Source: a virus (Duplodnaviria; Caudoviricetes). From it: a stretch of DNA of 60,887 nt. Location: the IMG/VR virus record IMGVR_UViG_3300028196_000013, positions 1 through 60,887 of that record; one strand, 5' to 3'. Under the pieces are notes generated by a model, which saw only the letters and a list, made by a program, of their open reading frames with translations, had not been told where the DNA came from and made no database searches. The stretch's first letter is position 1. The number at the start of each line of letters is the position of its first letter. Below are positions 17,613 through 33,782 of this stretch, piece by piece. Made by a program: the position numbers and the translations under genes.

Positions 17613-18207
17613 CTACAGCCGAGGAGGCGAGGCCGACATGCAAAGCTGTCATTGTATCGGGCGAAGCACCTACTAAGATGGGAATTCCAACAATCGCTCC
17701 GATGCCTCCTGCGACAATAGCGGGGCCCTTTTGGAATGATGGTGCGACTTCGCTCCAGTCAAGGCCAGCCAGCCCAGCACCCAGAAGACCCAACAATACA
17801 ACGCCTCCACCTGTCATGGCCCGGTAAAAGGGATCTTCAACAACAGGCGCAGGCTCTTCTGCCCGAGTCGAATTGGCAGCAACTGAGGCAGCAACACCAG
17901 CAACTGCGCCGGCTACCGCAGTTGCGGTACGGCCTTCCTTGGAGTCTCCCAATTTAATCCCCCCATCTTCTAACATATTAGCCAGCAATACTCCAGCGAT
18001 ACCCCCGGCGAGGCCGTAGGCTACGGAATCAGTGACAGCTCCACTCCTGGACGGGAGAATGGCAAAACCCATGTTTGGGTTGGTCAAACCGTAATTCATT
18101 GGTTTCAGTTGACTTACTCTCTTCATTCGAGATCTGTGGGTCTCACCGACTCTTTGATTGCCTAAGATGTTGTAATTGTCCTTTCCTATGTGGCTTGCAG
18201 GTATCAT
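17572..18207 (-). CDS. Gly/Ala-rich multi-TM membrane protein
   Basis: Several GxxxG-type hydrophobic segments. Confidence 0.6.
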   Translation of the reverse strand: MIPASHIGKDNYNILGNQRVGETHRSRMKRVSQLKPMNYGLTNPNMGFAILPSRSGAVTDSVAYGLAGGIAGVLLANMLEDGGIKLGDSKEGRTATAVAGAVAGVAASVAANSTRAEEPAPVVEDPFYRAMTGGGVVLLGLLGAGLAGLDWSEVAPSFQKGPAIVAGGIGAIVGIPILVGASPDTMTALHVGLASSAVGVGLAHRLLGSVN

Positions 18208-18659
18208 TCTAAATCCTCCATTCGTGTCAAATCATCCAATTCCGTTTGTAATTGGTCAAGACTTTTTTCTTCTGGCTGTTGCTCTTCATCTATGTCGGCG
18301 TCACCAGTCCAGTCATCATCCTCTTCTAAAACAATCTCGTGGAGTGCGTTTGCAGACATGCGCATGGTTGGATAAACTGGTACGGCAGAAACGCACCGGT
18401 AATGGTAACTAATGCCTGTGTAAGCGGACCGCCTTGTGATTCTTACGACCGAATCAATCGGCCATCGTGCTGATACTCCTTTTGGCCTTGGAACGCAAGC
18501 ACCAAGCAAAGCAGGATCGTCAATGCCGATGAGCGGCAACGCCGATGTTTCGATTTTACCGTCGATTACCAGGCCGAAAGGCTGTAATTCTTGAATGGCT
18601 TCTTGGTCAGTCAGGACCTCGTGCATTGGCACGAGTGCATGATTTAAGACTCCCGCCAT
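18204..18659 (-). CDS. rpo5: RNA polymerase subunit Rpo5/RpoH (RPB5 C-terminal) homolog with insertions and acidic tail
   Basis: HALVPMHEVL, LPLIGIDDP, VVRITRRS..TGISYHYRCV match the Rpo5 consensus. Confidence 0.85.
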   Translation of the reverse strand: MAGVLNHALVPMHEVLTDQEAIQELQPFGLVIDGKIETSALPLIGIDDPALLGACVPRPKGVSARWPIDSVVRITRRSAYTGISYHYRCVSAVPVYPTMRMSANALHEIVLEEDDDWTGDADIDEEQQPEEKSLDQLQTELDDLTRMEDLE

Positions 18660-18697
18660 AGCAATGCCAAGAGGTTTTATCAATTGAAGATGCCGAT

Positions 18698-18856
18698 TCA
18701 CTCGCTGGAATCAGCTTCGAGAATCTTTGCACCCAAGGCCACAAGAGATTCGTATGTGTGGACAACTTGAGATTCTGGTACTTCGTGCTTGAGTACGACT
18801 TCGTTTCCGGCTGCGTTCTTGAATGCATAGACAACTTCGATATTGGTTTGGCGCAT
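18698..18856 (-). CDS. Small hypothetical protein (52 aa, not in ORF track)
   Basis: MRQTNIEVVYAFKNAAG...; TATA-like TTAAAA about 25 bp upstream. Confidence 0.45.
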   Translation of the reverse strand: MRQTNIEVVYAFKNAAGNEVVLKHEVPESQVVHTYESLVALGAKILEADSSE

Positions 18857-18897
18857 GAATCAAGTCAAGGGTTTCAGCCTTTTAATGGGTGCGTCGT

Positions 18898-19581
18898 TTA
18901 ATTTTTCCACCACTTGCTTTTTTTGGCAACCTTTTTGTCCCTACGCAATGGATTGTCGGACTCATCTGCCTCGCTCATGGCTTCTTTGTTTGTCCATTCG
19001 TAAAATCGGGTCATTATTTCTGTCCGTTCGAGTGGTCTCACGCCGTAGCCTAATATGTCCCATCCTGTATCGAGGCAATAATACTGCAATGGTCGGTAAA
19101 ATGCTTCCAAGGCTATTGCAAACCTCGCCTTTGCAAGAAGTTCCTCGTTCTGTTCTCCTTGTTTCAAATGCTCTTCGATTTCTTGTCGAATCTTTTGCTG
19201 ATCCAACTCGGGCGGGTGCTTGTAGGTGACTTTTGCTTTGCCTGTTACGGCATCAACACCCTCGTAATATTGCCCAGTTCCGCAGGAAGGACATGACAAG
19301 AAACGACTGTGTACGACCCCCGAACCGTCTTTGGTTGGCATCGTAAGAAACTCCTCTTTGATTTCTTCGCTGCCACAAGCTAAACAAGGAGGGTGTTTCT
19401 CTCCACGCTTTACTTCAATGTCGTCCATGGACCCACATTGAATCATAATGGGCCATTCTGGTTCATCTACAATTTTCTTGCATATTGGGCAAGCGTCTTT
19501 CCATGCATCAAAAGCTAATGATTGATCGTGTTTCACCATGTTTATCTCTCCGAATTTATTTTTCCTAAAGACTTGTTCCAC
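18898..19581 (-). CDS. Zn-binding hypothetical protein
   Basis: CPIC, CLAC, CPSC. Confidence 0.6.
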   Translation of the reverse strand: MEQVFRKNKFGEINMVKHDQSLAFDAWKDACPICKKIVDEPEWPIMIQCGSMDDIEVKRGEKHPPCLACGSEEIKEEFLTMPTKDGSGVVHSRFLSCPSCGTGQYYEGVDAVTGKAKVTYKHPPELDQQKIRQEIEEHLKQGEQNEELLAKARFAIALEAFYRPLQYYCLDTGWDILGYGVRPLERTEIMTRFYEWTNKEAMSEADESDNPLRRDKKVAKKSKWWKN

Positions 19582-20282
19582 ACAATAAGTGCATCATTGC
19601 GCCACTTGAGTTGGCCGTAAACGAACGCATTGTGTGTAAAATCTGCCTTTGCTTGAATACTTTCATGTCTCTCGTCCTTTTGACACTTTACTTGAGCGGT
19701 CGGTAGCCACGCCATCGCACACCCGTCGAGGAAGAGCCTACGCCCGAAATCGCAATCCTCCCACCCGTAAACACCGTCATAGGAACTATCAAATCCACCG
19801 ATTCGTCGCCATGCCGATTTCAAAAAACCCATGTGCATGCCGTAATAGTGCGATGCAATCCACTTGCCATTCGCTGCATTAGGATTTCCGTATCGACTGT
19901 CCGAGTGTGCTGCGAGGCGACCGTTGAGTGTGTACGAACCCGCCACGGCATCAAAGCCGAGTTCTCCCGCTTTGGAATGAATATTGAGGACCTTGGCATC
20001 GATGGTCGTCAAATCGTCTATGCAAACAATCCATTCTCCTGACGCAGCGGCAATCCCCATATTCCTTGCAGAAGCAGGGCAAGGTCCATGCCCAGTGTCT
20101 TTCAAATGAATGAAGTCTATTCCAAGCTGAGCCATTGCCTGTTCCCAGTGTTCGTTTCGAGAATCCTTCAAGGCGTCGACATAAACCAACTCAATGTCCT
20201 TGGCCCCCTGTAAGGACTTTACCAATTCAACGAAACCGGGCTCCTTTCTGGCAGTAATAACGACTACTGAAATTTTAAGCAT
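19542..20282 (-). CDS. Glycosyltransferase, GT-A fold (GT2-like)
   Basis: ISVVVIT start, ARNMG, CIDD, IGGFD..YGWEDCD. Confidence 0.88.
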   Translation of the reverse strand: MLKISVVVITARKEPGFVELVKSLQGAKDIELVYVDALKDSRNEHWEQAMAQLGIDFIHLKDTGHGPCPASARNMGIAAASGEWIVCIDDLTTIDAKVLNIHSKAGELGFDAVAGSYTLNGRLAAHSDSRYGNPNAANGKWIASHYYGMHMGFLKSAWRRIGGFDSSYDGVYGWEDCDFGRRLFLDGCAMAWLPTAQVKCQKDERHESIQAKADFTHNAFVYGQLKWRNDALIVWNKSLGKINSER

Positions 20283-20283
20283 A

Positions 20284-22677
20284 TCATTCCTCCTCCTGGT
20301 CGTTGCTTGTCGGTTTGTCTTGCATTGAAAGTAATGGGGCGTTCCCGTTCGGTTGCGGAATTAGATACGAGTGGTGGTGAAAAGCCCACGCCGCACATAT
20401 CTTCTCGTATGATTTTGAATGTTGACCTGCAACAATTGTCCAATCTCGGTCTGCTGCCAAGGATTTGACATTAGCGGAAAGATGTTCGTAATATTTCTTG
20501 TCCGATGAAAACACACGGATAGCCTCTATGATTGTTTGACACAGGGATTCCGGCTCGGAAGAACACTTCCAGCCGTGTATGCCTCCGATTATGTCCCTTA
20601 GTCGCCCTTCGTCTGTGGCTATCACGGGTTTTCCTGCAGAAAGTGTTCGCATCAAGGCTCCTGATGTTGAATTTACATCACGCCCAGAATAAGGGAACGC
20701 CACTATGCTGCTTGCATTGAGGTAGAGATCTAATTTCTCTTCTGATACAAATTCCTTTGAATAGTAAACGCCATCGATTTGTTCAGCCAACAACTCGCAT
20801 GCCTTGGTGTATTCATTTTGCCCCGATGCGTTTTCTCCAGCAAAAATAGCCACTTCAAAATATTGGGTATTTTCCTTTGCCTTCTGAATAGCCTTCAAAA
20901 AAGACAAGGTGCCTTTTGCTTTGGATGGGAATCCAAAGTGAAACAGCAAGGGTATTCCTGCTGGCAACCCGATTTCTTTTCGAGATTCGGGATGAGGCGG
21001 TATGTGCAACACGCCATGGGGGATATAGTCAACTGGTGCTGTAACAGTTCCTGCAAGCTCTTTAGCAAGCCTTTCATTGTGCAGAAAAATGCCATCAGAC
21101 AACAATATTGCTTCCTTTACGCAATCATTGTTGAAGTCTGGAGTATGCAGCGTTGTTACAACATGTCTGTTCATGCTCCTTAGAGTGGGATACAAGTCTG
21201 AGAATCGCCTAAGCATCGTTGCTTCGTGTTGCACATGGACCACATCGGGGTTGGAACTTTCAATGGCCGCTGAAAGTGAACCGCCAGATTGCCACTTACG
21301 ATCCCAACAATGTATTATTGTAATGTCGTTGATCGTGGATTTCGAATTCATTGAGTGTTCTTTGGTGGATTCTGCGAAGATAGTGACTTTGTGACCTAAA
21401 GCGACCAAGGATTCCGCTAACATTTGAGTATAGGTTGCAATACCACAATTTACTCCATGCGTGGACACAATACCGACATGGCGTGGTTTCTTTGGTCTAA
21501 CCTTGACTAATGGCGGATAGTAGTGCTTGAACATAAATGCGAGCAACCCATCAAGGTATTCCGGAAAGATATTGTTCGGAGTGTACTTGTCCACGGGCGA
21601 CAAGTTCGCTCCCGAATCAAGTCCATTTTTCCACTCATCGTACAATGTTTCTAAGCGTACTACAATGCCTGGCACATTTGGTAAGCCGTAGTCTTCACCT
21701 TCTCTGTATCCCTCGACTCCGACTATGAACTCCTGCCGGAAATTCAACTCAGGCATTGGGCCGTAGTTGGTATTGATTACCGGAACTCTCTGCATTTGGG
21801 CTTCGATTTGTAAAACTCCAAAACCCTCTTGATTGGAACAATGGATAAGGGCGTCAAGTCCCTTCAAATTAGTGGCAAGTTGTAAATCCGACCACGCCTC
21901 ATTAGAATCGGTGATATGAGCTTCGAACCAAGCCGCTTCTTGAGGTTCTTCCATTTGCAAATGATTGGAGTGATGAATCCACAGTCTCACATCATCCTTG
22001 CCCATCGAAAATTCAGCCCACGCTTGAAGAATTTCATGCGGCGACTTTCGCTTCGAAAAATCCCCCCATAATCCTGCCGTGAAGTGTCCGGGTTCGATAG
22101 GCCAATGCCGTGTAGAGCGAATCGCCGCCTTTGACTTTGGAATGGAGACCTTTTCGGCCACATGGGGCAAATAGAAAGCACCCTGCAATCCGTTTCTTGC
22201 CATTACCTTCTGCCCGAATACTGACATTGCGACGGGAATTGATTGCCTGAGCGTCTCTATTTCTCGTTCAGTCAATGTTTCTCTGTCTACGGGACCAATA
22301 ACTGCAGAAGGGAATTCTGCAAACAAATCGCCCCATTTGTGAAGATCTCCGAGAGCTATCATCACCCATCGATCTATGGACTTTTGAGATAGCCACCGAT
22401 TGACGGTTTCATTGATGTGAGAATTTGTCAAACCTTCTTTCCTTTTTGCCTTCGATGGGCAAACCGGGGCAACGGTGATGCTGTTGTATTCGAATTGATT
22501 CAAATCATATCCGAAATCTGAAATGTGAAGGACTTCGTACTTGGAGCATAGGTATTCGCCCATGAACTTGAGCTGCTTTCCATATCCGGTGGGCAAAAAA
22601 GGAGGATTTCCAATTAGAACAACGCCATCCATGAATCGCTGATGCGTCTCAGCCCTTTCAAGCAAACGCCATGTCAT
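20284..22677 (-). CDS. Double-domain GT-B (GT4-like) glycosyltransferase
   Basis: Domain 1: PTGYG..EGFG..EAQ..PVI. Domain 2: CGIATY..HVQHE..FPY..SG..KPVI. Likely start MTWRL at 22677. Confidence 0.88.
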   Translation of the reverse strand: MTWRLLERAETHQRFMDGVVLIGNPPFLPTGYGKQLKFMGEYLCSKYEVLHISDFGYDLNQFEYNSITVAPVCPSKAKRKEGLTNSHINETVNRWLSQKSIDRWVMIALGDLHKWGDLFAEFPSAVIGPVDRETLTEREIETLRQSIPVAMSVFGQKVMARNGLQGAFYLPHVAEKVSIPKSKAAIRSTRHWPIEPGHFTAGLWGDFSKRKSPHEILQAWAEFSMGKDDVRLWIHHSNHLQMEEPQEAAWFEAHITDSNEAWSDLQLATNLKGLDALIHCSNQEGFGVLQIEAQMQRVPVINTNYGPMPELNFRQEFIVGVEGYREGEDYGLPNVPGIVVRLETLYDEWKNGLDSGANLSPVDKYTPNNIFPEYLDGLLAFMFKHYYPPLVKVRPKKPRHVGIVSTHGVNCGIATYTQMLAESLVALGHKVTIFAESTKEHSMNSKSTINDITIIHCWDRKWQSGGSLSAAIESSNPDVVHVQHEATMLRRFSDLYPTLRSMNRHVVTTLHTPDFNNDCVKEAILLSDGIFLHNERLAKELAGTVTAPVDYIPHGVLHIPPHPESRKEIGLPAGIPLLFHFGFPSKAKGTLSFLKAIQKAKENTQYFEVAIFAGENASGQNEYTKACELLAEQIDGVYYSKEFVSEEKLDLYLNASSIVAFPYSGRDVNSTSGALMRTLSAGKPVIATDEGRLRDIIGGIHGWKCSSEPESLCQTIIEAIRVFSSDKKYYEHLSANVKSLAADRDWTIVAGQHSKSYEKICAAWAFHHHSYLIPQPNGNAPLLSMQDKPTSNDQEEE

Positions 22678-22888
22678 GTTGTGGTTTCTTGGTTTTTTTG
22701 GCCTCGATGGAAAGTTGGAAAATGAGGTATGCGAGGCGATCCGCATCAATATCTGCGCCGGTCAATTGTCGTCTGATGCTTTCGGCTGTCTCCATCAATT
22801 TGAACAATTCCATATCGTCCAGGGCATCTACTTGCTTCGATGCCTTGGATACTGCGAGGTACAATTCGGTGTCTATTTCGTCTCCCAT
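22658..22888 (-). CDS. Small helical hypothetical protein
   Basis: 76 aa ORF upstream of the glycosyltransferase. Confidence 0.45.
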   Translation of the reverse strand: MGDEIDTELYLAVSKASKQVDALDDMELFKLMETAESIRRQLTGADIDADRLAYLIFQLSIEAKKTKKPQHDMAFA

Positions 22889-22986
22889 GTGTTCTGCTTA
22901 GTTGTAGACAGCACATATACCCTTTCCGAACATGATGAGCGATGTAGGGTTTATACGGTTGGTACACATGGAACGGTTTGAGGAAA

Positions 22987-23145
22987 ATGGCTCGAGGAAA
23001 AAGCATACATGTTGACGCCGAAACACATGACAGATTGAAAAAGCGAGGGGTCTTTGGAGAATCATTTTGCGATGTAATCAAAAGACTCTTGGATCAACTC
23101 GAACATTTTGAAGTGCAACCGGAAGATGATTCGGAGGCACTCTAA
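22987..23145 (+). CDS. Small ribbon-helix-helix/antitoxin-like DNA-binding protein (52 aa, not in ORF track)
   Basis: MARGKSIHVDAETHDRLKKRGVFGESFCDVIKRLLD, a typical archaeal RHH pattern. Confidence 0.65.
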   Translation: MARGKSIHVDAETHDRLKKRGVFGESFCDVIKRLLDQLEHFEVQPEDDSEAL

Positions 23146-23544
23146 ATGGCTAAACTGAAAGTATTGAAGCAGATAGAGAAGTTGTTTATCCGCACAGGCG
23201 AAGATGTCCTCGCCTTCAAAACAATCATGTCTAATGTGGATGAAAGGAGAAGCACCCTGCTTGGAGTGCTTTCTTCGAATAAAAAAGTATTTTCTAAAAT
23301 TGCAAAAAATCAATGGCAGTACATTCCGGATACACGAGGCTCCGTTGAGGAAATGTGCCGACAATATGGATTTGACCGTGAAGAAATCGCCCATTTGGTG
23401 ACAGAAGATGGGGGTTTGCAGTATTCGTGGGTACGAGTCAAGCCTTCAGGAGACTTAATCTCCAGGAGGGAGTTTCATTACCTTCTCCATACAATGCAAA
23501 AGCATGGCGAAGTTATTGACGACGAATCCGCCGTAACTGCTTGA
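23146..23544 (+). CDS. Hypothetical protein, possible winged helix
   Basis: 132 aa; GGAGG SD; abuts the RHH gene. Confidence 0.55.
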   Translation: MAKLKVLKQIEKLFIRTGEDVLAFKTIMSNVDERRSTLLGVLSSNKKVFSKIAKNQWQYIPDTRGSVEEMCRQYGFDREEIAHLVTEDGGLQYSWVRVKPSGDLISRREFHYLLHTMQKHGEVIDDESAVTA

Positions 23545-24520
23545 CAACAGTTGAGGGAATCATCTTGTTCTCAGCTTGTTGAGGATTGACCAGAACCAGT
23601 GGACGGTTTAAGTTCCTAAGCGCCTCTGCCGCCCTGTAAACACCCTTTCTGTCTATCATCGCCACTCTTGCTATGGCTGCCCCACTGAATCTTCTTGGCC
23701 GTGTCTTTGCCTCCTTCGATGCAGCAAGCATCAACGCAGCACAGGCATGATCAACTGCCCGAATGTTAGGCACTGTCTCTTTTGCAATTTCTAATGCCTC
23801 TTTCAGCATCTCGGGTGGAGTCTCAATTTTACTTGCGAGGTGTGATACAATCTCGACAGCATCAAGGCGATTGATATCGAATAGGTTGTTTGCCCTTGCA
23901 TCACTTAGAAAGCGATTTACAACTTTGACAGATGGCTTTTCGCTGTGAGCTTTCGCTAATTTTGCCACCGGCACGGGCATCCCTGCATTGAGTGATGCGA
24001 CACGCAAAGCGGCCACAGCAGTGACCTTATGGCCTCTGCCGCCAGAACCACTTCCATACTCGTGAAACAAATTGAATAAGCGAGTGGCCTCTTCAATTCG
24101 TCTCAATGTAAAACCAAATGCGTCAGCGACTCTTTCCATCTCCGTTCTTGCATCCTCCTTTCTTCGCTGAGACCCTGATTTGGAGACGGTCATGTTCATC
24201 GGTGCAGATAGGCCAGTCTCTTTGTCGTATGACTCACTATTCGACTCAAGGATGTCCAAGGGGCGGGACAAGCCACAATGCTTGCATGCAATCTGCCAGT
24301 CAGCGTTTTCATTTTTTGCTGATTTTGATAAAACAGTTTCCTTTTGGATCAATTCATCAAATTTGTATTTCAAAGTTGCATCAGAGATTTCCTTGTTGGA
24401 AACCATTCCATGTTCAGCCATTATGTGCAGCACCGCACAATTTACAGGCCACCCCGATTGACATTCAGCTCCGTCAAAAGCTTTCTTTTCGAGAGTAGTG
24501 TATTCGGATAAGTCGGCCAT
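23513..24520 (-). CDS. tfb: Transcription factor B (TFB/TFIIB)-like protein
   Basis: CKHCG then two cyclin-fold repeats (MERVADAFG..GRGHKVTAVAAL; ACAALMLAA..AIARVA); likely start MADLS at 24520. Confidence 0.8.
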   Translation of the reverse strand: MADLSEYTTLEKKAFDGAECQSGWPVNCAVLHIMAEHGMVSNKEISDATLKYKFDELIQKETVLSKSAKNENADWQIACKHCGLSRPLDILESNSESYDKETGLSAPMNMTVSKSGSQRRKEDARTEMERVADAFGFTLRRIEEATRLFNLFHEYGSGSGGRGHKVTAVAALRVASLNAGMPVPVAKLAKAHSEKPSVKVVNRFLSDARANNLFDINRLDAVEIVSHLASKIETPPEMLKEALEIAKETVPNIRAVDHACAALMLAASKEAKTRPRRFSGAAIARVAMIDRKGVYRAAEALRNLNRPLVLVNPQQAENKMIPSTVVKQLRRIRRQ

Positions 24521-24539
24521 GCTAATGCTAAGAGGTCCA

Positions 24540-25005
24540 TTATGATAAATACCGATGGCATATTTGCATGATGCAATTATACAAATTGCGAATACAGGGT
24601 GCTGCAAATGTAGCAGGAACGCCCGCCATGCAATTGAAGCTGCCCTCGGATCGTGCTTACGAACGAATCCAGGGGCCGGTTATCAAGTCCGATGGCATAT
24701 TTGCATGATGCAATTATATTTATTGCGTAAACAGGCTTGTAAGTCTATGATCTACGAGCCGCACAGCGTAAAGCTGTGTTTCAGGCGAGCATTTGCGCCG
24801 AACAGAGGTCTGTTATGAAGGCCGATGGCGTAAATGCACGATACAATGTTAAACACTGCGTAAACAGGATGCTGATTCAGTACAGAATTGGCTTCAGGAC
24901 ATGAGGGCATGGTGAGATCCACCAAGCTCCTGCGTCTCAAAGACCTCATTTATGAAGGCCGATGGCACAAACGCACGATACAACATTAAACATTATGAAA
25001 TAGGG
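24540..25005. repeat. Four ~60-bp direct repeats at 133-137 bp spacing
   Basis: CCGATGGC core at 24552, 24689, 24822 and 24959, each within TTAT..CCGATGGC..GCAYGATRCAA..AGG. Confidence 0.9.
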
Positions 25006-25640
25006 CAGGGGTTAAGCACCCCGTAGCACATTAGAATGATGCGAGCAAAGAGAGTCCACAAGAGCAACAGACCGTTGCTTAGGGCTCCAATGGCTCATAA
25101 GAATGAAACAACTTAACAACAAAAGCCGGTGAGGTTACGACCTCTCACGAGCCACCTTTGAAAACCCCGTAGCAGGGGATCATCACTGGAATTATGGTTC
25201 ACCGGCTGCACACCAACAGGAAATTGCGATACCAAAGGCTTCGGCCTTCGCACCCAGTTGATGCAGCAAATCGAATACTGCCGTGGTTGCTAACCACGAC
25301 AAGCGCTCCCAGGCATCTTAGTTAGATGCAGAATGGATAGGCGGACTCGAAAGAGAAGAAGATTTGCAGCCCTAAGCCGTTTGGTAGCGGTATGGGCATA
25401 CGGTAAAGTGACCCTGGAGACAGGACGAGGACAGAAAATAAAGAAATACCGTTGCGATTCCGGTCAATTCCGGATGAGCTTACTGTCGACAGACATTTGA
25501 TGAGCGACACTGCAGCAATGCGTGTGTCGTAACAGGATGGGAGTTACTCCGAACTAAACCTCTTGAGGCATGTTCGAGTCATCACACAAGTGCTTGCACT
25601 TGAGGAAATTCCTTACATCTTGTCTCCATAAATGGGTCAC

Positions 25641-25672
25641 ACTTAACAACTTAACAACTTAACAAACTTAAC
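25641..25672 (+). repeat. Tandem ACTTAACA repeat (about 4 units)
   Basis: ACTTAACAACTTAACAACTTAACAAACTTAAC. Confidence 0.9.
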
Positions 25673-25812
25673 CTAATCGGGAATTAGGGGCGCTCTTAAG
25701 CCCCCGAAAGCCCAATAGAATGAGGAGGGATAACACCCAACTCACGCTGACCACTCTAACCGTAGAATACGCACCGAAAGGATGCGACGGGAAACGATGG
25801 AAAGCGACGGCT

Positions 25813-25866
25813 GAAACCAGAGATGGTGGAGGCAAAACCGCCGAAACCAGAGATGGTGGAGGCAAA
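25813..25866 (+). repeat. 24-bp direct repeat, 30-bp period
   Basis: GAAACCAGAGATGGTGGAGGCAAA twice. Confidence 0.9.
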
Positions 25867-26235
25867 CCACTGATACACCCGGCAGCCTAACAGCAGAAGA
25901 CAGGAATGAACGCCGGCCTGCGAAAGAAATCCCCGAAAGGGGGCACCGTAAAATGAATCAGTAACCAACAAAAGAAACAACAGGAGGATTTGGGATCCTT
26001 TCCTTGCGAAATTGCAATCGCTTGGACCGTAAGGACCCTTAACCTGTGAATGCTCTGATGAAGACGATTCCTACGGGATGAAGGCGATTCGGAATGTTTC
26101 GGATGTGAACCATGATGCGAGATGGGGATTTTGAACTCGAAAGAGAACTTAACACAGCAACCGAAAGGTGCAACAATGCGACACACCATTCTGATGGTTG
26201 GTCAGCGTGCGACAGGGTGCGACAGCACCACAACA

Positions 26236-26549
26236 TCACCCCGTAGGGGGTTCTTTCTCTCAAGCAGGTTCGAAAAGTGCCTACGCAAGCAAATCGCAAG
26301 CGGCGAGAAGAGAAAGAAACAAGAGGGCGTTTGCCCAACCGGACCGTGCTTCCGGAGAAAAAATAGTGCAAGCCCCCCTTGAGGTGTAGATAGGGAAAAT
26401 CTTAACATTTTCACCCCATGTGGGGTTTCTTCGTCTCAAGACTGATGTTCGGCGGCGGGAAGCGAAGACAACAAGAGGGCGATTGCCCATACCGGACCGT
26501 GCTTCCGGCAAAAAATAGTGCAAGCCTCCCTTGAGGTGTAGATAGGGAA
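26236..26549 (+). repeat. Two diverged copies of a ~140-160 nt element (putative ncRNA)
   Basis: 26236-26397 and 26411-26549 share AAGAGGGCG..TGCCC..CCGGACCGTGCTTCCGG..AAAAAATAGTGCAAGCC..GAGGTGTAGATAGGGAA; separated by CTTAAC. Confidence 0.85.
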
Positions 26550-26555
26550 CTTTAC

Positions 26556-26813
26556 ATGACCATGAAATTACCCGTAGGAGTAGTGGATAATCAACTTGCT
26601 TGGCACATCGATTCGGTGTTTGCTAAGCGTTTTGATAGAATCCAATGCGCAGAACAGAATAGATTATGGAATATTTGCCAAAAACGAATGGAACAAAAAA
26701 GGTTGAACTCAACCTCAGTATCCTGTCCGAATGGCAAATGGCAAATTGAAATCGATTTCAAAACAGCGGGAGATATCGCATACCAGTGGTGTCTTCTTGC
26801 AGAAGGAAACTGA
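26556..26813 (+). CDS. Hypothetical protein
   Basis: 85 aa; preceded by variant CTTTAC|ATG; stop lies in CTGAAC. Confidence 0.6.
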   Translation: MTMKLPVGVVDNQLAWHIDSVFAKRFDRIQCAEQNRLWNICQKRMEQKRLNSTSVSCPNGKWQIEIDFKTAGDIAYQWCLLAEGN

Positions 26814-26815
26814 AC

Positions 26816-27334
26816 ATGTCTAATTTTAGAGGACGCAGCAGACGAAAGAATGTAGATAAGAGGATAACACCATTTATCGCAAACAAGAACATCGCAATAC
26901 TTCGGTCAGAGGTTTTGGTCGAGGTTCGCATTGGAAAGTCGCATGAAAATTTCACTTTGCCCTGGAGCCGAGTGGTTGGTCAGACTGTTATAGGCAAACT
27001 GCCTTTAGAGAGACAACCAGAATATCTCCAGAAAATAGCCAAGAGTCTTGGTGAGCATTTACTCTGGAACGGGCCACAGACACCACCGTGTCTCAATCCC
27101 GATACAGTTGAAAATTTCATGAGTAACGATGAATTCCTCGAACGACAAGCCCTTCGAAAGATGGGGCCTAACAGTCGAAAAAACAGAGGAAACAAAGGAA
27201 AGAAAATGAAACAAGGAATTAGCAAGAACCAAAATCACACATTTGTGAACAAACATGGAGTGTTGATTCTGAACGGTAGTCAAGCAACTGCCGACAAGAA
27301 AGCGAAAGAACGAGCGCAAGGCGAGTTCTATTGA
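26816..27334 (+). CDS. Basic hypothetical protein
   Basis: First CTGAAC|ATG start (MSNFRGRSRRK); K/R-rich. Confidence 0.7.
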   Translation: MSNFRGRSRRKNVDKRITPFIANKNIAILRSEVLVEVRIGKSHENFTLPWSRVVGQTVIGKLPLERQPEYLQKIAKSLGEHLLWNGPQTPPCLNPDTVENFMSNDEFLERQALRKMGPNSRKNRGNKGKKMKQGISKNQNHTFVNKHGVLILNGSQATADKKAKERAQGEFY

Positions 27335-27357
27335 TTAACTGAACAGGGGAATTTATT

Positions 27358-29307
27358 ATGAACCGAAAAATGAGCGCTGAAGGCGCAATAAAAAGCAATG
27401 AAAAGGACGCACACCTATTTGTGCGAATATTGACCGTTATGGTGAATATGTTGACACTGATGAAGACGGAAACCATGGGAATGTTTTTCCGTCTTGACAT
27501 CAAGAATGACCCAGCCAACCGCGTTGGGTCTGAAACAACCAAGGGTGCGCTTGTTGAGATTCAATTCAACAGCAAACTGGTTGAAAAACTTGTGAAACTG
27601 ACATCAGCAATGGTGAACAAGTTTCATGCCGGCAGAAAAAGTCGGCGCAAAATGTCAACAGACACCGACGAACCAATATCTGCATCAGATGAAACTCCAA
27701 ACTGGGACGATGTTCCGTTTGTAGCTTTCATCGTGAGGCAAGTCTATAGGATCTTGGCAGCACCGAAGTACATTTGTTCCGTCGAAGGGAGCGAATACTT
27801 CAATGAATGCTATTACAAAGTCGGTTGTGAAGCCGGCAAGATAACGATCCAAATACAAGATTGGGCTCGAGGAGAACGAATTGCAACTGGCAGTTCAAAG
27901 ACAGGCTTTAAGAAGAGATGGACCAACAAACATTGGAACCATGGACATCAGCCATTCCTCAGAATCAATCATGCTACCTACAACGAGTTAATCCGAAGTG
28001 GGCAAAAAGCAAGAACAACAACGCCGCGTGGAAAAGTCCTTGAAACAGAGGAAGACGCGCAAAAATACAACCAAGGAAAGAAAGACCGGATGCTGTATAT
28101 GAATGCAGCTTTGGCCGTTCAAACCATCTTGAAGTTTACTCCTGAAAAGGGATTCGTCAAGGAAGGTCACGGCCACCCAGTAGGTTACTACATCGAATCA
28201 GGGAAAGCCCCGAACAGGCACACCCGAGTCGTTGGATACATCTACGCTAACGAAGACACCCGGTTCCGAGTCAAAGGACTCAAAGAAGACCAACTTGAAA
28301 CTGTTTACACATATCCTAACCACTTTGGCGGGGACCGTGAATCGAACGGTAGAGATGCAGCCTTCTTCCTGAGAGACTCCGTCCTTGGAGAGAAAAAGCG
28401 AAATGGTGGCCGAGGGGCCTCCAGTATCAAATTTGGAGACAAGTCAAGCAAGAAGAAGGAAGTCATTGCGCACTTCCAACAACCTGCGAAGGAACTCTTC
28501 AAGAAAGGCAAAGGCGGAGCATTCGTCCTAACGCAAAAAACCGTGGAATATGTATTCAATACAGACATCTGCGGTGGAAAGTATCGGACAATTGCAACGC
28601 AACTCAAACTCAGACAACGACGCGAATCAACAGTGACTCTTGGAGATGCACTTTTGGGGAGCGAAAGGGGCATGTTTTGGAAGATGCTCATGTCGATTGG
28701 CCCGTTCTCATCAACACCTACCCCAGAACACAAGGTTCGTGAAGGCTTCGGCCAACTGAACCCCAAGTTTGCGGATGGCGTGAGAACAGTCCCTCGTAGG
28801 AGTAAGGAGAATGACAAAGGTTGGACCGAGCGTGGTCTACTGAATTCAAAGGTTAGCTGGAAGGCAGGGGCAATTGGGCCTCGTGCCTGCGGCAACGCCT
28901 GTGAATGCTTCTTATGCCAAGGCAACGAAATTTCTGACGAATTGAACGGATTGTTTGACGAAGACTTACGCAGATTGACTGGTTTGGGCAACTACGACGC
29001 CCCTACCTTGATCCCAGTGATGTCTCGAGACGATGTCCCCGTGTTGAATTACGGGACTGCAGGCAATCCAGATGATGACGCCGAGCAAGCATTGATGCTG
29101 AATACCATGAACGCACATTTTGACACCGATACCTTCCCGATGTGGATTGAAGCGGACCAGTGGAATGCCAAGCAAGGCTTCACCATTGGTGCCCAACTCA
29201 TTTCACGACCAGCGACGCCTGCGGACACAGGCAGACCTGGACACCGGTTGGGATCGGACGAAATTGAATTTGTTGAACTTGTAGCATACCCAACTCACAT
29301 CGAGTAA
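27358..29307 (+). CDS. Large basic hypothetical protein (649 aa) with a CxxxCxCxxC cluster
   Basis: Long ORF; CGNACECFLC; no family recognised. Confidence 0.75.
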   Translation: MNRKMSAEGAIKSNEKDAHLFVRILTVMVNMLTLMKTETMGMFFRLDIKNDPANRVGSETTKGALVEIQFNSKLVEKLVKLTSAMVNKFHAGRKSRRKMSTDTDEPISASDETPNWDDVPFVAFIVRQVYRILAAPKYICSVEGSEYFNECYYKVGCEAGKITIQIQDWARGERIATGSSKTGFKKRWTNKHWNHGHQPFLRINHATYNELIRSGQKARTTTPRGKVLETEEDAQKYNQGKKDRMLYMNAALAVQTILKFTPEKGFVKEGHGHPVGYYIESGKAPNRHTRVVGYIYANEDTRFRVKGLKEDQLETVYTYPNHFGGDRESNGRDAAFFLRDSVLGEKKRNGGRGASSIKFGDKSSKKKEVIAHFQQPAKELFKKGKGGAFVLTQKTVEYVFNTDICGGKYRTIATQLKLRQRRESTVTLGDALLGSERGMFWKMLMSIGPFSSTPTPEHKVREGFGQLNPKFADGVRTVPRRSKENDKGWTERGLLNSKVSWKAGAIGPRACGNACECFLCQGNEISDELNGLFDEDLRRLTGLGNYDAPTLIPVMSRDDVPVLNYGTAGNPDDDAEQALMLNTMNAHFDTDTFPMWIEADQWNAKQGFTIGAQLISRPATPADTGRPGHRLGSDEIEFVELVAYPTHIE

Positions 29308-29438
29308 GGTTTGAACGACTGCAGATTTTGGATGAAGACCGCCGCCCTTACAGGCGGTGTAGCCGCCTGTTGCGGGATGCCGAGTGTATGAAAAATGACA
29401 CCGCCCGCAACAGGCACCACTTTCATTACGAAGAAAAC

Positions 29439-29496
29439 AACGAAGAAAACGAGAGAATTACAAAACGAACGAAGAAAACGAGAGAATTACAAAACG
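29439..29496 (+). repeat. 29-bp tandem duplication
   Basis: AACGAAGAAAACGAGAGAATTACAAAACG twice. Confidence 0.9.
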
Positions 29497-29539
29497 AATA
29501 AACGAATGGAGTAGAACATCTACTCAACTTAACAAACAA

Positions 29540-29890
29540 ATTCAATGGCTGACATAGCCAGTGGAGTGTAGAATCTTACCGAAAACCTGCCAACCGACGA
29601 CCCGCACTGCGGGCTTAGATTGGATAACAGGCGAATAAGTCGGAGGAAAGATTGTGATGGCAATCACGAACTGGGTTCGCATAAGGGTGAAGAACCACCT
29701 GTGGAAATGAAGGCGAGAGCCGAATTGGAAACCATGCACCGCACTCTTGGCTGTCGGCTACTGGCCTCACAGGTCAGTCAAGCGTAAGTGAACGCTGAAT
29801 ATCGAATGAGTTAGGTCGCCTTAGCAGGGCACATGGCCGTTTAGATACCTTGAATCGGATGATCCTTCACAGGATTCCCGGATAGAGGAT
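29540..29890 (+). ncRNA. Putative structured ncRNA (~350 nt)
   Basis: Bounded by CTTAAC (29528) and CTGAAC; GGCTGACATAGCCA can pair with TGGCTGTCGGCT; several local hairpins; no + strand ORF. Confidence 0.45.
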
Positions 29891-30453
29891 AACTGAACAA
29901 CTGAACGGAAGAGGGCGACGAAAAGTTTTCGCGGCTGTTGCAATCACCCTCTTCCACTTAACAACTGAACGGAGAATGCCGAATATGCAGTGGGACCAAT
30001 CTGGCTTCATGGGCGGAGGGAGGTAGACCTGATTGCGGCATTCTCCACTTAACAACTGAACGGAGAATGCCGAATATGCAGTGGGACCGCAATTTCCCGG
30101 CATCGGAGGGAGGTAGACCTGATTGCGGCATTCTCCACTTAACAACTGAACGGAAGAGGGCGACGAAAAGTTTTCTCGACTGTTGCAATCACCCTCTTCC
30201 ACTTAACAACTGAACGGAGAATGCCGAATATGCAGTGGGACCGCAATTTCCCGGCATCGGAGGGAGGTAGACCTGATTGCGGCATTCTCCACTTAACAAC
30301 TGAACAGCTATGGGCGCATAGTGTAGCATGGATATCACTCCGGCCTTCTAAGCCGGAAACCCGGGTTCGAATCCTGGTGCGCCCGCCACTTAACGGAGAA
30401 TTCCGAATATGCCTTGCATGCGGAGGGAGGTAGACCTGATTGCGGATTCTCCA
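29891..30453 (+). repeat. Array of terminally base-paired small RNA-like units (A,B,B,A,B,tRNA,B') joined by ACTTAACAACTGAAC
   Basis: A: 29907-29955 and 30152-30200 (GGAAGAGGG..CCCTCTTCC). B: 29971-30046, 30062-30136, 30216-30290. B': 30395-30452 (GGAGAAT..ATTCTCC). Confidence 0.9.
30312..30388 (+). tRNA. trnR: tRNA-Arg(TCT) with encoded CCA
   Basis: Acceptor stem GGGCGCA/TGCGCCC; anticodon arm CCGGC-CTTCTAA-GCCGG; T loop GGTTCGAATCC; 3' GCCA. Confidence 0.95.
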
Positions 30454-30476
30454 CCTGTGAACACAGGAAACAACTT

Positions 30477-30514
30477 AGAACCAGTCTCGAGTGTCGAGAC
30501 TGGTTCTTTTTTTT
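30477..30514 (+). terminator. 14-bp hairpin plus T8 tract (terminator-like)
   Basis: AGAACCAGTCTCGA-GTG-TCGAGACTGGTTCT then T run. Confidence 0.6.
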
Positions 30515-30542
30515 GGCCTCTGTGAAAGGAGGGTAACTGAAC

Positions 30543-30959
30543 ATGGATTGGATTGAATTACGAGACAATGTCAAACTTATTGACGAAGAAACGGAAACAC
30601 CATGGTTTGAATCGCCATTATTTGTATCATATGAAGAATGGGAGACTAAATGCCCATATGTATTGCTTTACTACGATGGCGAATTGAAGGGGAAAATAGA
30701 AGTTTACACCGATGTAAGCCATGAAACCCGTATGGAAACAAAAACCGCTGAATACATCATTTTGAATAACACGATGTATTACTTGAGCGATTTAGAAGAA
30801 GAAATTGATTGTGAGTGTATCACAACAGACATGGGTGGAAAATGCACCCATTGTTTGAGGGGACCAAGGGATGAGACATACATCACGATGGATGAGACAT
30901 ACATCACGATTGAGAATAAGTCGCCACCTAAACGCCGATTCGGGCGACAGAATATCTGA
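30543..30959 (+). CDS. Hypothetical protein
   Basis: CTGAAC|ATG start; stop in next motif. Confidence 0.75.
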   Translation: MDWIELRDNVKLIDEETETPWFESPLFVSYEEWETKCPYVLLYYDGELKGKIEVYTDVSHETRMETKTAEYIILNNTMYYLSDLEEEIDCECITTDMGGKCTHCLRGPRDETYITMDETYITIENKSPPKRRFGRQNI

Positions 30960-30961
30960 AC

Positions 30962-31336
30962 ATGACTGACAGAATACTATGGATGAATCCCTATGATGGG
31001 AAAGAATACGAAGTAGGCGAGACAATCCCGGTTTACCGAACGGGCGATGGAGGCCTCGTACACAATTCAACTGTTGTGAGACTTGAAGACCCAGGTTTCC
31101 CCGGTGTGGTGGAGATGAAGGATGGCGGGAGATACGAATACAATCATGGAATGGGTGTTGCCCAAGTTAAGAAGTGGTTGATCCCGGCGCTTGAGCCTGA
31201 TATGGATTGGTTCTACCTTGGTCCATCCGAGCAAGGATGGAGAATGTATTACGCAAGAAAAGAACTCAATAAGAGCAAAGCAATAGAAATGGCATCATTT
31301 AACGCCCTCGTGGGAGAAGATGATGAAGATAACTGA
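30962..31336 (+). CDS. Hypothetical protein
   Basis: CTGAAC|ATG start; stop in next motif. Confidence 0.75.
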   Translation: MTDRILWMNPYDGKEYEVGETIPVYRTGDGGLVHNSTVVRLEDPGFPGVVEMKDGGRYEYNHGMGVAQVKKWLIPALEPDMDWFYLGPSEQGWRMYYARKELNKSKAIEMASFNALVGEDDEDN

Positions 31337-31338
31337 AC

Positions 31339-31569
31339 ATGAAACATCTGAAAGACGCAAGATGGAGGGTATTGAAGGACTGGATAGATAATCCGGTCAT
31401 CTATACCCACAAAGAAATGAAGAAAATCGTAAAGCCAGCCTTGGTCACAAAAGAAAGTGATGTTAAGGCTAAGAAAAGACGATGGAACATAATTATGAAT
31501 CTCGAAATAGGACAAACATGGACCTACATCAACATGTCCGGAAAAACCACCTATACGAGAATTGACTGA
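31339..31569 (+). CDS. Hypothetical protein
   Basis: CTGAAC|ATG start; stop in next motif. Confidence 0.75.
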   Translation: MKHLKDARWRVLKDWIDNPVIYTHKEMKKIVKPALVTKESDVKAKKRRWNIIMNLEIGQTWTYINMSGKTTYTRID

Positions 31570-31571
31570 AC

Positions 31572-31832
31572 ATGGGACTTACAAATAGAAAACCGATAAA
31601 GGGCGTGAAGAAGGGTGACTCCATCACGACAAAGAAATTGAAAGAGCATAATCTGTTAAGGGATTCTCCCTTGACAAAGACCGTAAGAAGTTGGAAGGTA
31701 GAATCCGTGAAAATCTCGGATGTCAGCCTTACTAAGAAGAAGAAGATAATCGCCAAACAGAAAACGGTGATTGTTTTGACAAACGGTAAAGGCGAGAAAT
31801 TGAAGAGGACACGAACCTTTTGGATCAACTGA
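31572..31832 (+). CDS. Lys-rich hypothetical protein
   Basis: CTGAAC|ATG start; stop in next motif. Confidence 0.75.
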   Translation: MGLTNRKPIKGVKKGDSITTKKLKEHNLLRDSPLTKTVRSWKVESVKISDVSLTKKKKIIAKQKTVIVLTNGKGEKLKRTRTFWIN

Positions 31833-31834
31833 AC

Positions 31835-32788
31835 ATGAGAGCAAAAAGAAAAGTGACAAAGAAAAGAACACTGAAACCTTCTGACTTTCTGAAGCTGTGG
31901 ATAAATTATTGTGAGGAATTTCTATCGAGTTACTTAGGATATCCGATAGAAGACGAAATCACCGCAGAGACTCGAGATGAGTCATTCGGCATTTGGTTGC
32001 TGTCTACTCCTCACTTTAGCAAAGTCCCCACAAATAGCGAGTTGGAGACACTTGAAAAGGAGGAGCAAGAAGAACGACTACGAGCGATGGCGTTGGTGGT
32101 TGTGGCCGAATACTTCGGAACGGATATACTGGATTCAATCCCGTGTGTAGATGGTGAGAGTTTTGGCGACAAAGAGGCTTACGACAAGTTCTTTGAGAAT
32201 GAGGAGTGGGCTGAAGCAGCCATATTCTCAGAATTGATGCACGATGAAAGCGACCACCAGGTTCGTAGTTATCCGCATGACTCGAAGATTGACTTGGCAG
32301 ATGCGATTACAGAGAATGCAATTGCGCAGAACGCAGTCGACCTTTTGGCAAAGAAGGTAGAAGAGAAACAAACAGAAGAAGAAGCCATTCCTGACGAAGA
32401 GTTGGTTATTGGCCTCGCAGAAGAAACGGGCATTGAATATCCGGAGATACCTGCGGATGTCGATTCGTCTGTTGATGAATTTATGAGCGAAATCGAAGAA
32501 CATGTGCATGATGAAAATTGCATGCATTCGCATGAAGCGAAGGTTCCTGTAATTGCTCATACGCATGACGCTGTTCCTTGGGCGACCTTGGCGGCGATTG
32601 AAAAACACAAGAACGCTATTGCAAATAACGAGAATTCTGTCTTGGCCCTGGCTAACGGGGTTGAGGAACTTGTTGATAATGGAGGCGTTCAGACCAAGAG
32701 GGGATTGCTCGATGCGATCCTCATCTTGATAGAAGCAAAACCAGCAGAAGCCCTAAGAATTGTGGCGAGTTGGGAAAAATTGAACTGA
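31835..32788 (+). CDS. Acidic hypothetical protein
   Basis: Start reassigned to the CTGAAC|ATG (MRAKRK). Confidence 0.75.
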   Translation: MRAKRKVTKKRTLKPSDFLKLWINYCEEFLSSYLGYPIEDEITAETRDESFGIWLLSTPHFSKVPTNSELETLEKEEQEERLRAMALVVVAEYFGTDILDSIPCVDGESFGDKEAYDKFFENEEWAEAAIFSELMHDESDHQVRSYPHDSKIDLADAITENAIAQNAVDLLAKKVEEKQTEEEAIPDEELVIGLAEETGIEYPEIPADVDSSVDEFMSEIEEHVHDENCMHSHEAKVPVIAHTHDAVPWATLAAIEKHKNAIANNENSVLALANGVEELVDNGGVQTKRGLLDAILILIEAKPAEALRIVASWEKLN

Positions 32789-32790
32789 AC

Positions 32791-33024
32791 ATGGATAACA
32801 GAACAAAATTGAACCGAGATGGCGTATTGAAACTCAAGACTATCAATGCCCGAAAGGCTGGAAATGCGATTACAAAATTGATGATAAGGAATGCAACCAA
32901 AGCAGATAGAGAGGCGGTCTTATTGCGCCACGATGCAATTGGTAAAGCTCTTGATAATCTAATCAAAGAATTGAATACGACCGAAGTTCTCAAGTTAGAA
33001 CTGACACAAAAATACGAAAACTGA
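32791..33024 (+). CDS. Hypothetical protein
   Basis: CTGAAC|ATG start (MDNRT). Confidence 0.7.
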   Translation: MDNRTKLNRDGVLKLKTINARKAGNAITKLMIRNATKADREAVLLRHDAIGKALDNLIKELNTTEVLKLELTQKYEN

Positions 33025-33026
33025 AC

Positions 33027-33470
33027 ATGGCATTTAATCAACCGATTGACGGAAAAAATTGCGTGAAATACAAAATCGCAAAGACAAATCGACAAAGTTG
33101 TTTGCTGTGTGGCCATCCCATGTTTGAAGGAAGCATCGGAGTGTCTATGACAAACTCACATACTGAGGCTGTCAAATCAAAGAAAGCCAAATCAACAAAC
33201 CTGTGGTTACACGCAGAGTGCATGGCTCGACTCAGTAAAGAATTGAGGCGTGAAGACTTTGAAACAAACCAGCGAATAAACTTGAAAAAATGCACTTCGA
33301 AGAAACAATCGTGTATTTGGTGTGAAAAGAAAATTACACAAAGCATACAGATTGAGTTCAACAACAAAAATGACGCGATTACTTCAAAAAAATCGTTATG
33401 GATTCACAGAAAGTGCGCAAAAGAGATGGGAAGATCCCTCCACTGGAGGAATCGAAACCTGCCAAACTGA
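33027..33470 (+). CDS. Protein with two PARP-type-like Zn finger repeats
   Basis: Two CxxC...W(L/I)HxxC repeats. Confidence 0.65.
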   Translation: MAFNQPIDGKNCVKYKIAKTNRQSCLLCGHPMFEGSIGVSMTNSHTEAVKSKKAKSTNLWLHAECMARLSKELRREDFETNQRINLKKCTSKKQSCIWCEKKITQSIQIEFNNKNDAITSKKSLWIHRKCAKEMGRSLHWRNRNLPN

Positions 33471-33472
33471 AC

Positions 33473-33775: not shown

Positions 33776-33782
33776 ACTGAAC

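Follow-up and report, generated by a model that had tools for sequence, protein, structure and literature searches.

A conserved 8-nt motif bounds large noncoding RNAs and precedes gene starts in a virus with archaeal-type genes

The window analysed here, 60,887 bp of DNA that make up the whole of IMG/VR virus record IMGVR_UViG_3300028196_000013 (completeness rating ~48%), contains a block at 25110–26230 that is neither protein-coding nor mere spacer: it holds two conserved noncoding units, RNA1 and RNA2, that are bounded by the motif AACT(G/T)AAC in all four related genomes. RNA1 is a noncoding RNA with an elaborate, covariation-supported fold. The same motif is strand-specific and position-specific and serves both coding and noncoding boundaries, delimiting the members of a second RNA cluster and standing directly before the ATG of 71 downstream genes (Table 1). 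We propose that AACT(G/T)AAC is an RNA-processing signal through which leaderless mRNAs as well as noncoding RNAs are released from polycistronic precursors, a reading to which we give about an even chance of being correct. Release of the RNAs by cleavage at the motif is plausible.

Structured noncoding RNAs between divergent gene arrays

The block belongs to a gene-free gap of 2 kb (24521–26555) between divergent gene arrays, adjoined on its left by a gene for a TFB/TFIIB-like protein (23516–24520). A metagenome scan with a profile of this protein yielded 10 loci. The nucleotide sequences of four of them (L119, L120, L121 and L122) can be aligned with the gap, as can a fragment (L123). A preliminary description of this DNA, made from its letters, had presented the block as noncoding; it is gene-free as claimed, but the gap is wider than had been said. 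The accompanying statement that no credible open reading frame (ORF) is present needs a similar qualification: the block has no codon periodicity, but its ORFs reach 110 aa (− strand, 26039–26371) and 86 aa (+ strand), most of them being on the opposite, T-rich strand. Compared with its relatives, the block shows no three-base substitution periodicity in 10/10 comparisons (p 0.06–0.87), whereas the coding control, the adjacent TFB-like gene, does so in 3/3 (p ≤ 4e-15).

The consensus fold of RNA1, derived from five sequences, comprises 157 pairs in 27 helices. Its cells are paired in 93.8% of cases, against 35–43% when the partners are slid by one to three columns, and 36 pairs carry double changes, compared with 17.8 ± 2.8 in shuffles (0/500) and 3–6 when slid; because the five sequences represent ~3 lineages, the shuffle comparison overstates significance, and these counts indicate real constraint and are not probabilities. 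The single-sequence fold is also better than those of shuffled sequences (minimum free energy (MFE) z = −5.65, with 0/100 shuffles as good), and 33 G–U cells mildly favour the + strand (93.8% versus 89.6% paired). A long-range pairing between GCCGGTGA (25125) and TCACCGGC (25199), suggested in the preliminary description, is real: it forms helix 1 of the consensus fold, in which one pair changes from C:G to U:A in relatives. The other strings named there were likewise found at the places given or a few bases away (CTCGAAAGAG at 25346 and 26136, CCCCGAAAGGGG at 25931 and ACCGAAAGGT at 26160). The 3′ domain is the most conserved part of RNA1 and includes long invariant single-stranded stretches. 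Over its whole length, RNA1 is 96, 80, 80 and 76% identical at the nucleotide level to its counterparts in L119, L120, L121 and L122, respectively, and the identity of the TFB-like gene lies below this (74, 64 and 57% to L119, L120 and L122). With more than 400 nt and a multi-helix fold supported by covariation, RNA1 belongs among the large structured noncoding RNAs.

RNA2 is conserved as well (82, 67 and 75% nucleotide identity to relatives), and its fold is weakly supported. It consists of a conserved 5′ module, a variable middle that bears a 30-nt tandem repeat (25807–25866), an invariant CCAACAAAAGAAAC and a conserved 3′ module (26044–26147), and it folds better than shuffled sequences (MFE z = −3.42). 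A third motif-bounded RNA, RNA-C, lies in a second gene-free block downstream; 95% of the cells of its consensus fold are paired, versus 26–41% when slid, and 16 pairs carry double changes, versus 6.3 ± 1.9 in shuffles (0/500) and one when slid. The covariation in RNA1, the recovery of motif-bounded units in 4/4 genomes and the occurrence of these units among contigs from RNA libraries together bear out the idea that the block encodes large structured RNAs.

None of these RNAs matches a described family in Rfam, even when RNA1, RNA2 and RNA-C are each searched alone at E ≤ 10. At the gathering thresholds of Rfam 15, tRNA alone passes in the window and in L119–L122, in a set of models that includes GOLLD, ROOL, HEARO, OLE, RNase P, SRP, tmRNA, group I and II introns, hammerhead and other small ribozymes. 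Scans by E value of 24500–30600, 25100–26160 and 29520–29900 returned sub-threshold noise only, namely CRISPR-DR12 (19 bits versus a threshold of 37) and sR10 (9.5 versus 45).

A different view of the block would make it a replication origin or regulatory region acting as DNA, with hairpins and transcripts that are incidental. The block does lie where the divergent arrays meet and cumulative GC skew reaches its minimum, and four iteron-like direct repeats of ~60 nt precede it. These repeats lie outside the block, however, and inside it substitutions preserve RNA pairs, G–U pairs included, conservation exceeds that of the flanking gene, and RNA-library contigs match the units. The gap as a whole is better conserved than the surrounding genes, the neighbouring proteins being 46–76% identical. 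The RNA-type covariation speaks against a role confined to DNA, and we consider the origin reading extremely unlikely; an origin may lie nearby but would not explain the block, and the notion that the block is purely an origin is disfavoured. The ~60-nt repeats themselves, the last of which is conserved across all six aligned sequences, are candidate tandem promoters, regulator sites or origin iterons. Because the first copy falls in the TTG-extended frame of the TFB-like gene, that gene probably starts at the invariant Met at 24520.

The motif at noncoding and coding boundaries

Counted on both strands across the window, CTTAAC shows no enrichment (27 copies versus 18.7 ± 4.2 in shuffles, 3/100 of which reach 27). 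Of these, however, 15 are + strand copies within the two gene-free blocks, and 25110–26230 alone has seven where 0.17 are expected (Poisson 8e-10, with the rate taken from shuffles). The + strand positions listed in the preliminary description (25112; 25642, 25650, 25658 and 25667; 26038; 26148; and 26401) are correct. Its suggestion that these copies divide the block into segments applies to the edges of RNA1 and RNA2 but probably not to the copy at 26038, which is absent in 3/3 relatives and is crossed by RNA contigs in 4/4 runs.

When the gene-free sequences of the window and L119–L122 were cut at every CT(G/T)AAC and the resulting units were clustered, motif-to-motif families were obtained for RNA1 (five members), RNA2 (in four genomes), RNA-C (four members), an ~80-nt hairpin (eight copies), a 56-nt hairpin and the tRNA; RNA1, RNA2 and RNA-C were each recovered as motif-to-motif segments in 4/4 related genomes. 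At the 3′ edge of RNA1, L119 has three motif copies, L120 has degenerate copies together with a CTGAAC, and in L122 two CTTAAC are accompanied by a CTGAAC-ATG that opens an inserted gene. At orthologous boundaries, the G form in one genome can stand where another genome has the T form. The order of cassettes varies among the genomes (the tRNA of L119, for example, sits in the first gap), and the first gaps of L119 (reverse strand 7751–8838) and L120 (reverse strand 3458–4811) contain extra motif-bounded units that the window lacks, one of them, in L119, being tRNA-like and 100 nt long. The RNA clusters thus behave as shuffled cassettes. The duplicated element that follows RNA2 occurs in the window only, and none of the motif-bounded units of relatives is homologous to it. 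The CTTAAC at 26401 separates its two copies, an 85-aa ORF starts with its ATG immediately after the second copy, and only the first ~77 nt of the element fall inside the block as first noted.

Other routes to relatives were less productive. Scans of IMG/VR with the 649-aa protein encoded between the two RNA clusters, with the TFB-like profile and with the profile of an RpoH-like protein found no relatives, and neither blastn of the gap nor tblastn of the PCNA-like protein matched phage records. A 14-mer motif scan gave 117 single matches, which we took as chance. RNA1 17-mers gave 0 and 2 matches in IMG/VR, and blastn with the window aligned to neither of the two. All 17 matches of a metagenome-contig scan for RNA1 were also deemed chance, nhmmer confirming only two of them, and these locally around the 17-mer.

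The second gene-free block (29310–30540, + strand) contains RNA-C, hairpin units, a tRNA-Arg(TCT) and a terminator-like hairpin followed by T8, and it shows how precisely the motif abuts RNA structure. In the hairpin array, units of 56 nt and ~83 nt alternate, each ending ...CC-A before CTTAAC, and no terminators lie between them. The hairpin stems start at the base right after the motif, with CTGAAC followed at once by GGAG... five times and CTTAAC by GGAG... once, and the next motif comes after the last base of the hairpin plus one A. The tRNA-Arg gene encodes CCA and has CTTAAC immediately 3′ of it. A 14-bp hairpin with T8 (30477–30515) closes this RNA-rich unit. That hairpins start at the next base and the tRNA is flanked indicates that the motif acts at the level of the RNA or transcript, and not in translation alone. 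Within the rightward gene array there is also a 363-nt noncoding motif-bounded unit (45357–45719, + strand), in which a 14-bp hairpin comes right after CTGAAC, and a further gap of 219 nt lies at 36435–36653.

The punctuation noticed in the block therefore reaches well beyond it, to the second RNA cluster and to the 71 gene starts. CTGAAC occurs 98 times in the window, versus 36 ± 6 expected (0/100 shuffles); 90 copies are on the + strand, 87 of them at or beyond 26810, and 71 stand directly before an ATG that opens an ORF. In a logo of the 71 sites, information is confined to positions −8 to +2, with ~0 bits at −20 to −40, where no element resembling a TATA box or B-recognition element (BRE) is seen; a canonical promoter for each gene is thereby excluded. 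The motif is followed by a purine at each of the 71 ATG sites, as well as at the hairpins (G) and the tRNA leader (A). Shine–Dalgarno (SD)-like 5-mers lie upstream of 3/71 motif genes, versus 11/30 other gene starts, the latter being unrefined starts. Of 70 consecutive junctions, 50 have the motif's own TGA as the stop of the preceding gene (TGA-AC-ATG). At the remaining 20 the stop lies elsewhere, in 16 cases 6–17 nt ahead of the ATG, yet no part of the motif is missing; the gap is ≤17 nt at 66/70 junctions. The coding junctions carry the linear motif only, and punctuation by tRNAs is ruled out there by the presence of one tRNA in 60.9 kb versus 71 junctions.

The overlap of stop and start codons would fit a motif that serves translational coupling or re-initiation (UGA, two nucleotides, AUG) on an uncut polycistronic mRNA, with the copies around the noncoding RNAs as by-products or present for another purpose. 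The short gaps, the near absence of SD-like sequences at motif genes and the existence of contigs that bridge junctions are all in keeping with such a model. Yet the full motif is kept at the 20 junctions whose stop lies elsewhere; it flanks RNA1, RNA2, RNA-C, the hairpins and the tRNA, which are untranslated, with boundary copies conserved across genomes; and it forms tandem arrays in untranslated sequence. Since noncoding boundaries carry the motif, a purely translational role is insufficient, and as a full explanation re-initiation seems unlikely to us, although it may well coexist with processing or initiation.

The main alternative to processing is initiation of transcription. In some large DNA viruses, short motifs that abut the ATG act as promoters or initiators, and AACT(G/T)AAC could be a DNA-level initiator or mini-promoter from which a polymerase starts at the next base, making each RNA and leaderless mRNA a primary transcript. 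This could be the host polymerase, redirected by the TFB-like and RpoH-like proteins of the virus, or an unseen polymerase of the virus itself. Both proteins find support in family searches: a profile of the TFB-like protein and 10 homologues matches PDB TFIIB chains with E = 1e-6 and spans both cyclin repeats, and the RpoH/Rpb5-like protein (18207–18701) matches Pfam with E = 4.6e-10 and archaeal Rpo5 in PDB with E = 3e-4. The purine that follows the motif at ATG sites, hairpins and the tRNA leader would also suit initiation. Against this model stand the lack of a TATA/BRE-like signal, the C with which RNA2 would begin, the tandem array of four copies at the RNA1 3′ edge and the CTTAAC-AA-CTGAAC doublets, which make little sense as promoters, the hairpin units without terminators in between, and the contigs that bridge several junctions. 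We regard a mini-promoter as possible but doubtful; if true, it would represent a new mode of archaeal transcription initiation.

Table 1. Positions of RNAs, motif copies and repeats in the window
Feature	Positions	Strand	Basis
~60-nt direct repeat (TTATGAAGGCCGATGGC...GCACGATACAA...), four copies, spacing 133–137 nt	24533–24992	+	Repeat search, families D1/D2
43-nt module, two copies (CUUARG-loop hairpin, then AGAAUGA), just before first motif	24997–25106	+	Repeat family D3; conserved in alignment
AACTTAAC punctuation motif, RNA1 5′ edge	25110–25117	+	CTTAAC columns invariant in 6/6 aligned sequences
RNA1, 524-nt structured noncoding RNA, five domains, near-invariant 3′ domain	25118–25641	+	Consensus fold and conservation
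Four tandem motif copies (CTTAAC at 25642, 25650, 25658, 25667) between RNA1 and RNA2	25642–25672	+	Motif count
RNA2, ~475-nt conserved noncoding unit	25673–26147	+	Motif-bounded homologues in 4/4 genomes
CTTAAC, RNA2 3′ edge	26148–26153	+	CTTAAC or CTGAAC, single or double, at orthologous place in 4/4 genomes
Duplicated element, two copies (26154–26406, 26407–26555)	26154–26555	+	Repeat families D4, D5, D7
AACTGAAC-ATG gene starts, 71	26810–60302	+	Motif scan and logo
RNA-C, third motif-bounded structured RNA, ~360 nt	29534–29892	+	Homologues in 4/4 genomes; covariation
Array of 56–83-nt hairpin units and tRNA-Arg(TCT) (30312–30388)	29893–30515	+	Each after CTGAAC or CTTAAC, before CTTAAC

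Processing of a long precursor and contigs from RNA libraries

If AACT(G/T)AAC is a processing signal, the units would be transcribed rightward from the repeat region at ~24.5–25.0 kb within one long precursor, running to the hairpin-plus-T8 at ~30.5 kb and containing RNA1, RNA2, the duplicated element, three protein genes, RNA-C, the small hairpins and tRNA-Arg. A sequence-specific endoribonuclease would then cut this precursor at or beside AACUKAAC (K = G or U), freeing RNA1, RNA2, RNA-C, the hairpins and a tRNA precursor. At the 71 downstream junctions, the same cut just before the AUG (AACUGAAC-AUG) would generate leaderless mRNAs, a form that would suit the probable archaeal host, while each upstream message would retain its UGA stop and end two bases after it.

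Public sequencing runs contain sequence from this region. Of 24 runs listed, 20 include part of 24600–31400, and 16, from 15 studies, are recorded as RNA. Over 22000–34000 we compared Logan contigs, which show presence only and not ends, strand or level, from four marine RNA runs of four studies (the run labels include X1, X2, X4 and X5). RNA1 contigs occur in 4/4 runs, starting at 25130, 25131, 25134 and 25191 (X4) and ending at 25615–25642, and an RNA2 contig (25837–26070) is likewise found in all four. Two runs have contigs 26041–26366 and 26041–26733, a contig from ~26843/26906 to ~29500 covers three protein genes and stops at 29465–29504, before the CTTAAC at 29528, and another (29553–29714) corresponds to the first part of RNA-C. 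Adapter sequence directly adjoins 25134 and 29553 (X1), 25622 (X4) and 26128 (X5). Among the contigs listed for the four runs, none crosses the motifs at 25112–25117, 25642–25672 or 29528–29533. Polycistronic RNA does exist, because contigs bridge gene junctions (30774–31275 in X1; 26843/26906 to ~29500 across 27339 in 3/4 runs). Contig depths, which are unfit for ranking genes, were 19–70 for RNA1, 51–216 for the 25837–26070 contig and 12–38 for the mRNA contig. The contigs also record strain variation, with an 18-nt insertion after 26155 (X1 and X2), a form that has lost one copy of the duplicated element (X4) and deletions of 6 and 7 nt near 25882–25889 (4/4 runs).

Several observations weigh against processing at the motif, in addition to the few lineages behind the covariation counts. 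First, the clustering of contig ends near motifs is at most a weak hint, because contigs cannot show true RNA ends, and a contribution of carried-over DNA to the RNA libraries cannot be fully discounted; depth is zero over 22000–24400 in 4/4 runs, and this uncovered part counts as no evidence on carry-over. Second, some motif copies are bridged by contigs (26038 in 4/4 runs, 26148 in X1 and X2, 27339 in 3/4 and 30956 in X1), and an internal AACTGAAC at 28754–28761 lies inside the long contig over the 649-aa gene in 4/4 runs. Cleavage, if real, would thus be partial or need context beyond the 8 nt. Third, no match to MazF, RegB or other nuclease families was found among the window proteins scanned, and the 649-aa protein makes an uninformative candidate enzyme, with an AlphaFold2 pLDDT of 44 and atlas neighbours that all score <0.8, none of them informative. 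Finally, the consensus fold of RNA2 is weak, with 9/71 and 9/45 pairs compensated and a covariation term of +3.06 / −1.19.

The 649-aa gene (27358–29304, + strand) lies between the two RNA clusters and has a 13-nt leader of its own, with a G-rich stretch after CTGAAC. Its product has no Pfam or PHROG family and contains an invariant Cys cluster (C511, C515, C517 and C520). Only four homologues were found, and the protein is 46–48% identical to its counterpart in L119, where RNA1 is 96% identical.

Could the nuclease be an RNA? RNA1 or RNA-C is a candidate catalytic or recognition RNA of the punctuation nuclease, as an RNase-P-like ribozyme or ribonucleoprotein (RNP). The long invariant single-stranded stretches in the 3′ domain of RNA1, the conservation of the RNA above that of proteins, and the presence in the punctuated clusters of a tRNA and minihelix-like hairpins ending ...CC-A are features that such an enzyme might display. 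The isolated RNAs match no ribozyme or RNase P model in Rfam at E ≤ 10, however, and no site able to pair (G–U allowed) with CUGAAC, CUUAAC or the 8-mers is conserved in RNA1, RNA2 or RNA-C of the four genomes. The lack of a conserved complement to CUKAAC also makes a simple guide role, which the preliminary description had entertained, unlikely. On balance we hold an RNase-P-like activity to be very improbable, although it would, if true, constitute a new class of ribozyme or RNP and a new gene-expression strategy for DNA viruses. Equally little credence goes to the most ambitious version, a self-contained viral punctuation system in which an RNA1/RNA-C core would cut AACUKAAC, free the other noncoding RNAs and yield ~70 leaderless mRNAs from polycistronic early transcripts. 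As a working guess, the released RNAs may instead bind or mimic conserved host machinery for translation or RNA processing during takeover of the cell, rather than act in antisense regulation; a conserved partner is suggested by the almost invariant 3′ domain of RNA1, next to proteins that have diverged to 46–76% identity.

The core letters of the motif are also those of the gammacoronavirus transcription-regulating sequence, CU(U/G)AACAA. The preliminary description judged this likeness a probable coincidence, and we agree: the genes of the window are those of a DNA virus (tail-fibre-like, PCNA-like and DNA methylase), and no leader–body joints were found among the RNA contigs, neither of which fits discontinuous transcription of the nidovirus type. 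The leader joining that it proposed to look for found no support. The three joints seen in the four runs are all internal skips within 25751–26412; two are at or beside tandem repeats, and the third, from 26157 to 26412 (X4), joins the two copies of the duplicated element with loss of one copy.

The virus, its probable host and related systems

Genes in the window run rightward over 1–7011, leftward over 7128–24520 and rightward again from 26556 to the end. Besides the TFB-like and RpoH-like proteins, family searches identified a PCNA-like protein, glycosyltransferases, two DNA methylases and a serine recombinase, and a tail-fibre-like protein has a PHROG match. The RpoH-like protein has 42 homologues, all metagenomic and on contigs of ≤133 kb, one of which is labelled 'Euryarchaeota archaeon' by its source. 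TFB, PCNA and tRNA-Arg are described among tailed viruses of marine group II archaea (PMC10768690, PMC5434244), and for this reason we assign the window to a marine-archaeal host: it probably comes from a tailed double-stranded DNA virus of a marine archaeon, the archaeal host being suggested by gene content alone. A rightward island within the leftward array (8530–12303, + strand), with the serine recombinase (9999–10820) and small ORFs, may be an inserted mobile element or integration module. Two proteins of unrelated length (48193–49698 and 54964–55317, + strand) have an N-terminal DUF6011 motif in common (Pfam E ~5e-8 each). A third copy of the 43-nt module that precedes RNA1 is found at the start of RNA2 (25681–25723).

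Several known systems use short signals at gene boundaries. In mitochondrial tRNA punctuation, long precursors are cut at near-spacerless junctions, and mRNAs begin at or next to the AUG; here, by contrast, the signal is a linear 8-nt motif, one tRNA faces 71 junctions, and cleavage is proposed. MazF-type endoribonucleases, which give rise to leaderless mRNAs, and RegB of phage T4 cut a short RNA sequence near the start codon and thereby alter translation. The motif described here differs from their targets in being 8 nt long and invariant at 71 sites. The poxvirus late TAAATG element and the coccolithovirus nonamer are invariant short motifs before the start codons of dozens of genes and serve the initiation of monocistronic genes in eukaryotic hosts, whereas in the present virus stop codons overlap the motif, noncoding RNAs are bounded too and tandem copies occur. 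The motif strings were not found in the literature searched, which yielded nothing relevant on archaeal viruses, leaderless mRNAs or processing.

For the RNAs themselves, the closest parallels are GOLLD and ROOL, described as large, ornate, virus-encoded RNAs of unknown function that often lie near tRNA islands, the 3′ region of GOLLD being conserved (10.1101/2024.12.08.627333). RNA1 resembles them in its 524-nt length, elaborate fold, viral origin and most conserved 3′ domain, and a tRNA is nearby here too, with tRNA-Arg 4.7 kb downstream in the window and within the same gap in L119. It differs in lacking a covariance-model match, in its archaeal-type gene neighbourhood and in an 8-nt fence that is shared with gene starts. 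Another point of comparison is Tan1, characterized as an abundant, unexplained 229-nt structured RNA in marine metatranscriptomes and ascribed to marine group II archaea (PMC5069720); it shares the probable host group with the units described here and could be related to one of them, for example to the 25837–26070 contig.

If processing at AACT(G/T)AAC is real, it would be an undescribed way of splitting one long transcript into working pieces, with one invariant 8-nt signal organizing noncoding RNAs and ~70 genes. The units it bounds would represent new families of large structured RNAs (~520, 475 and 360 nt) in abundant, uncultured marine viruses with archaeal-type genes, and the puzzle of 'ornate' viral RNAs would extend beyond bacteriophages. 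The coexistence of SD-led and apparently leaderless genes in one genome would offer a tractable system for archaeal polycistronic translation. More broadly, the motif provides a handle for finding related viruses, annotating true gene starts and hunting the nuclease or factor that recognizes it.

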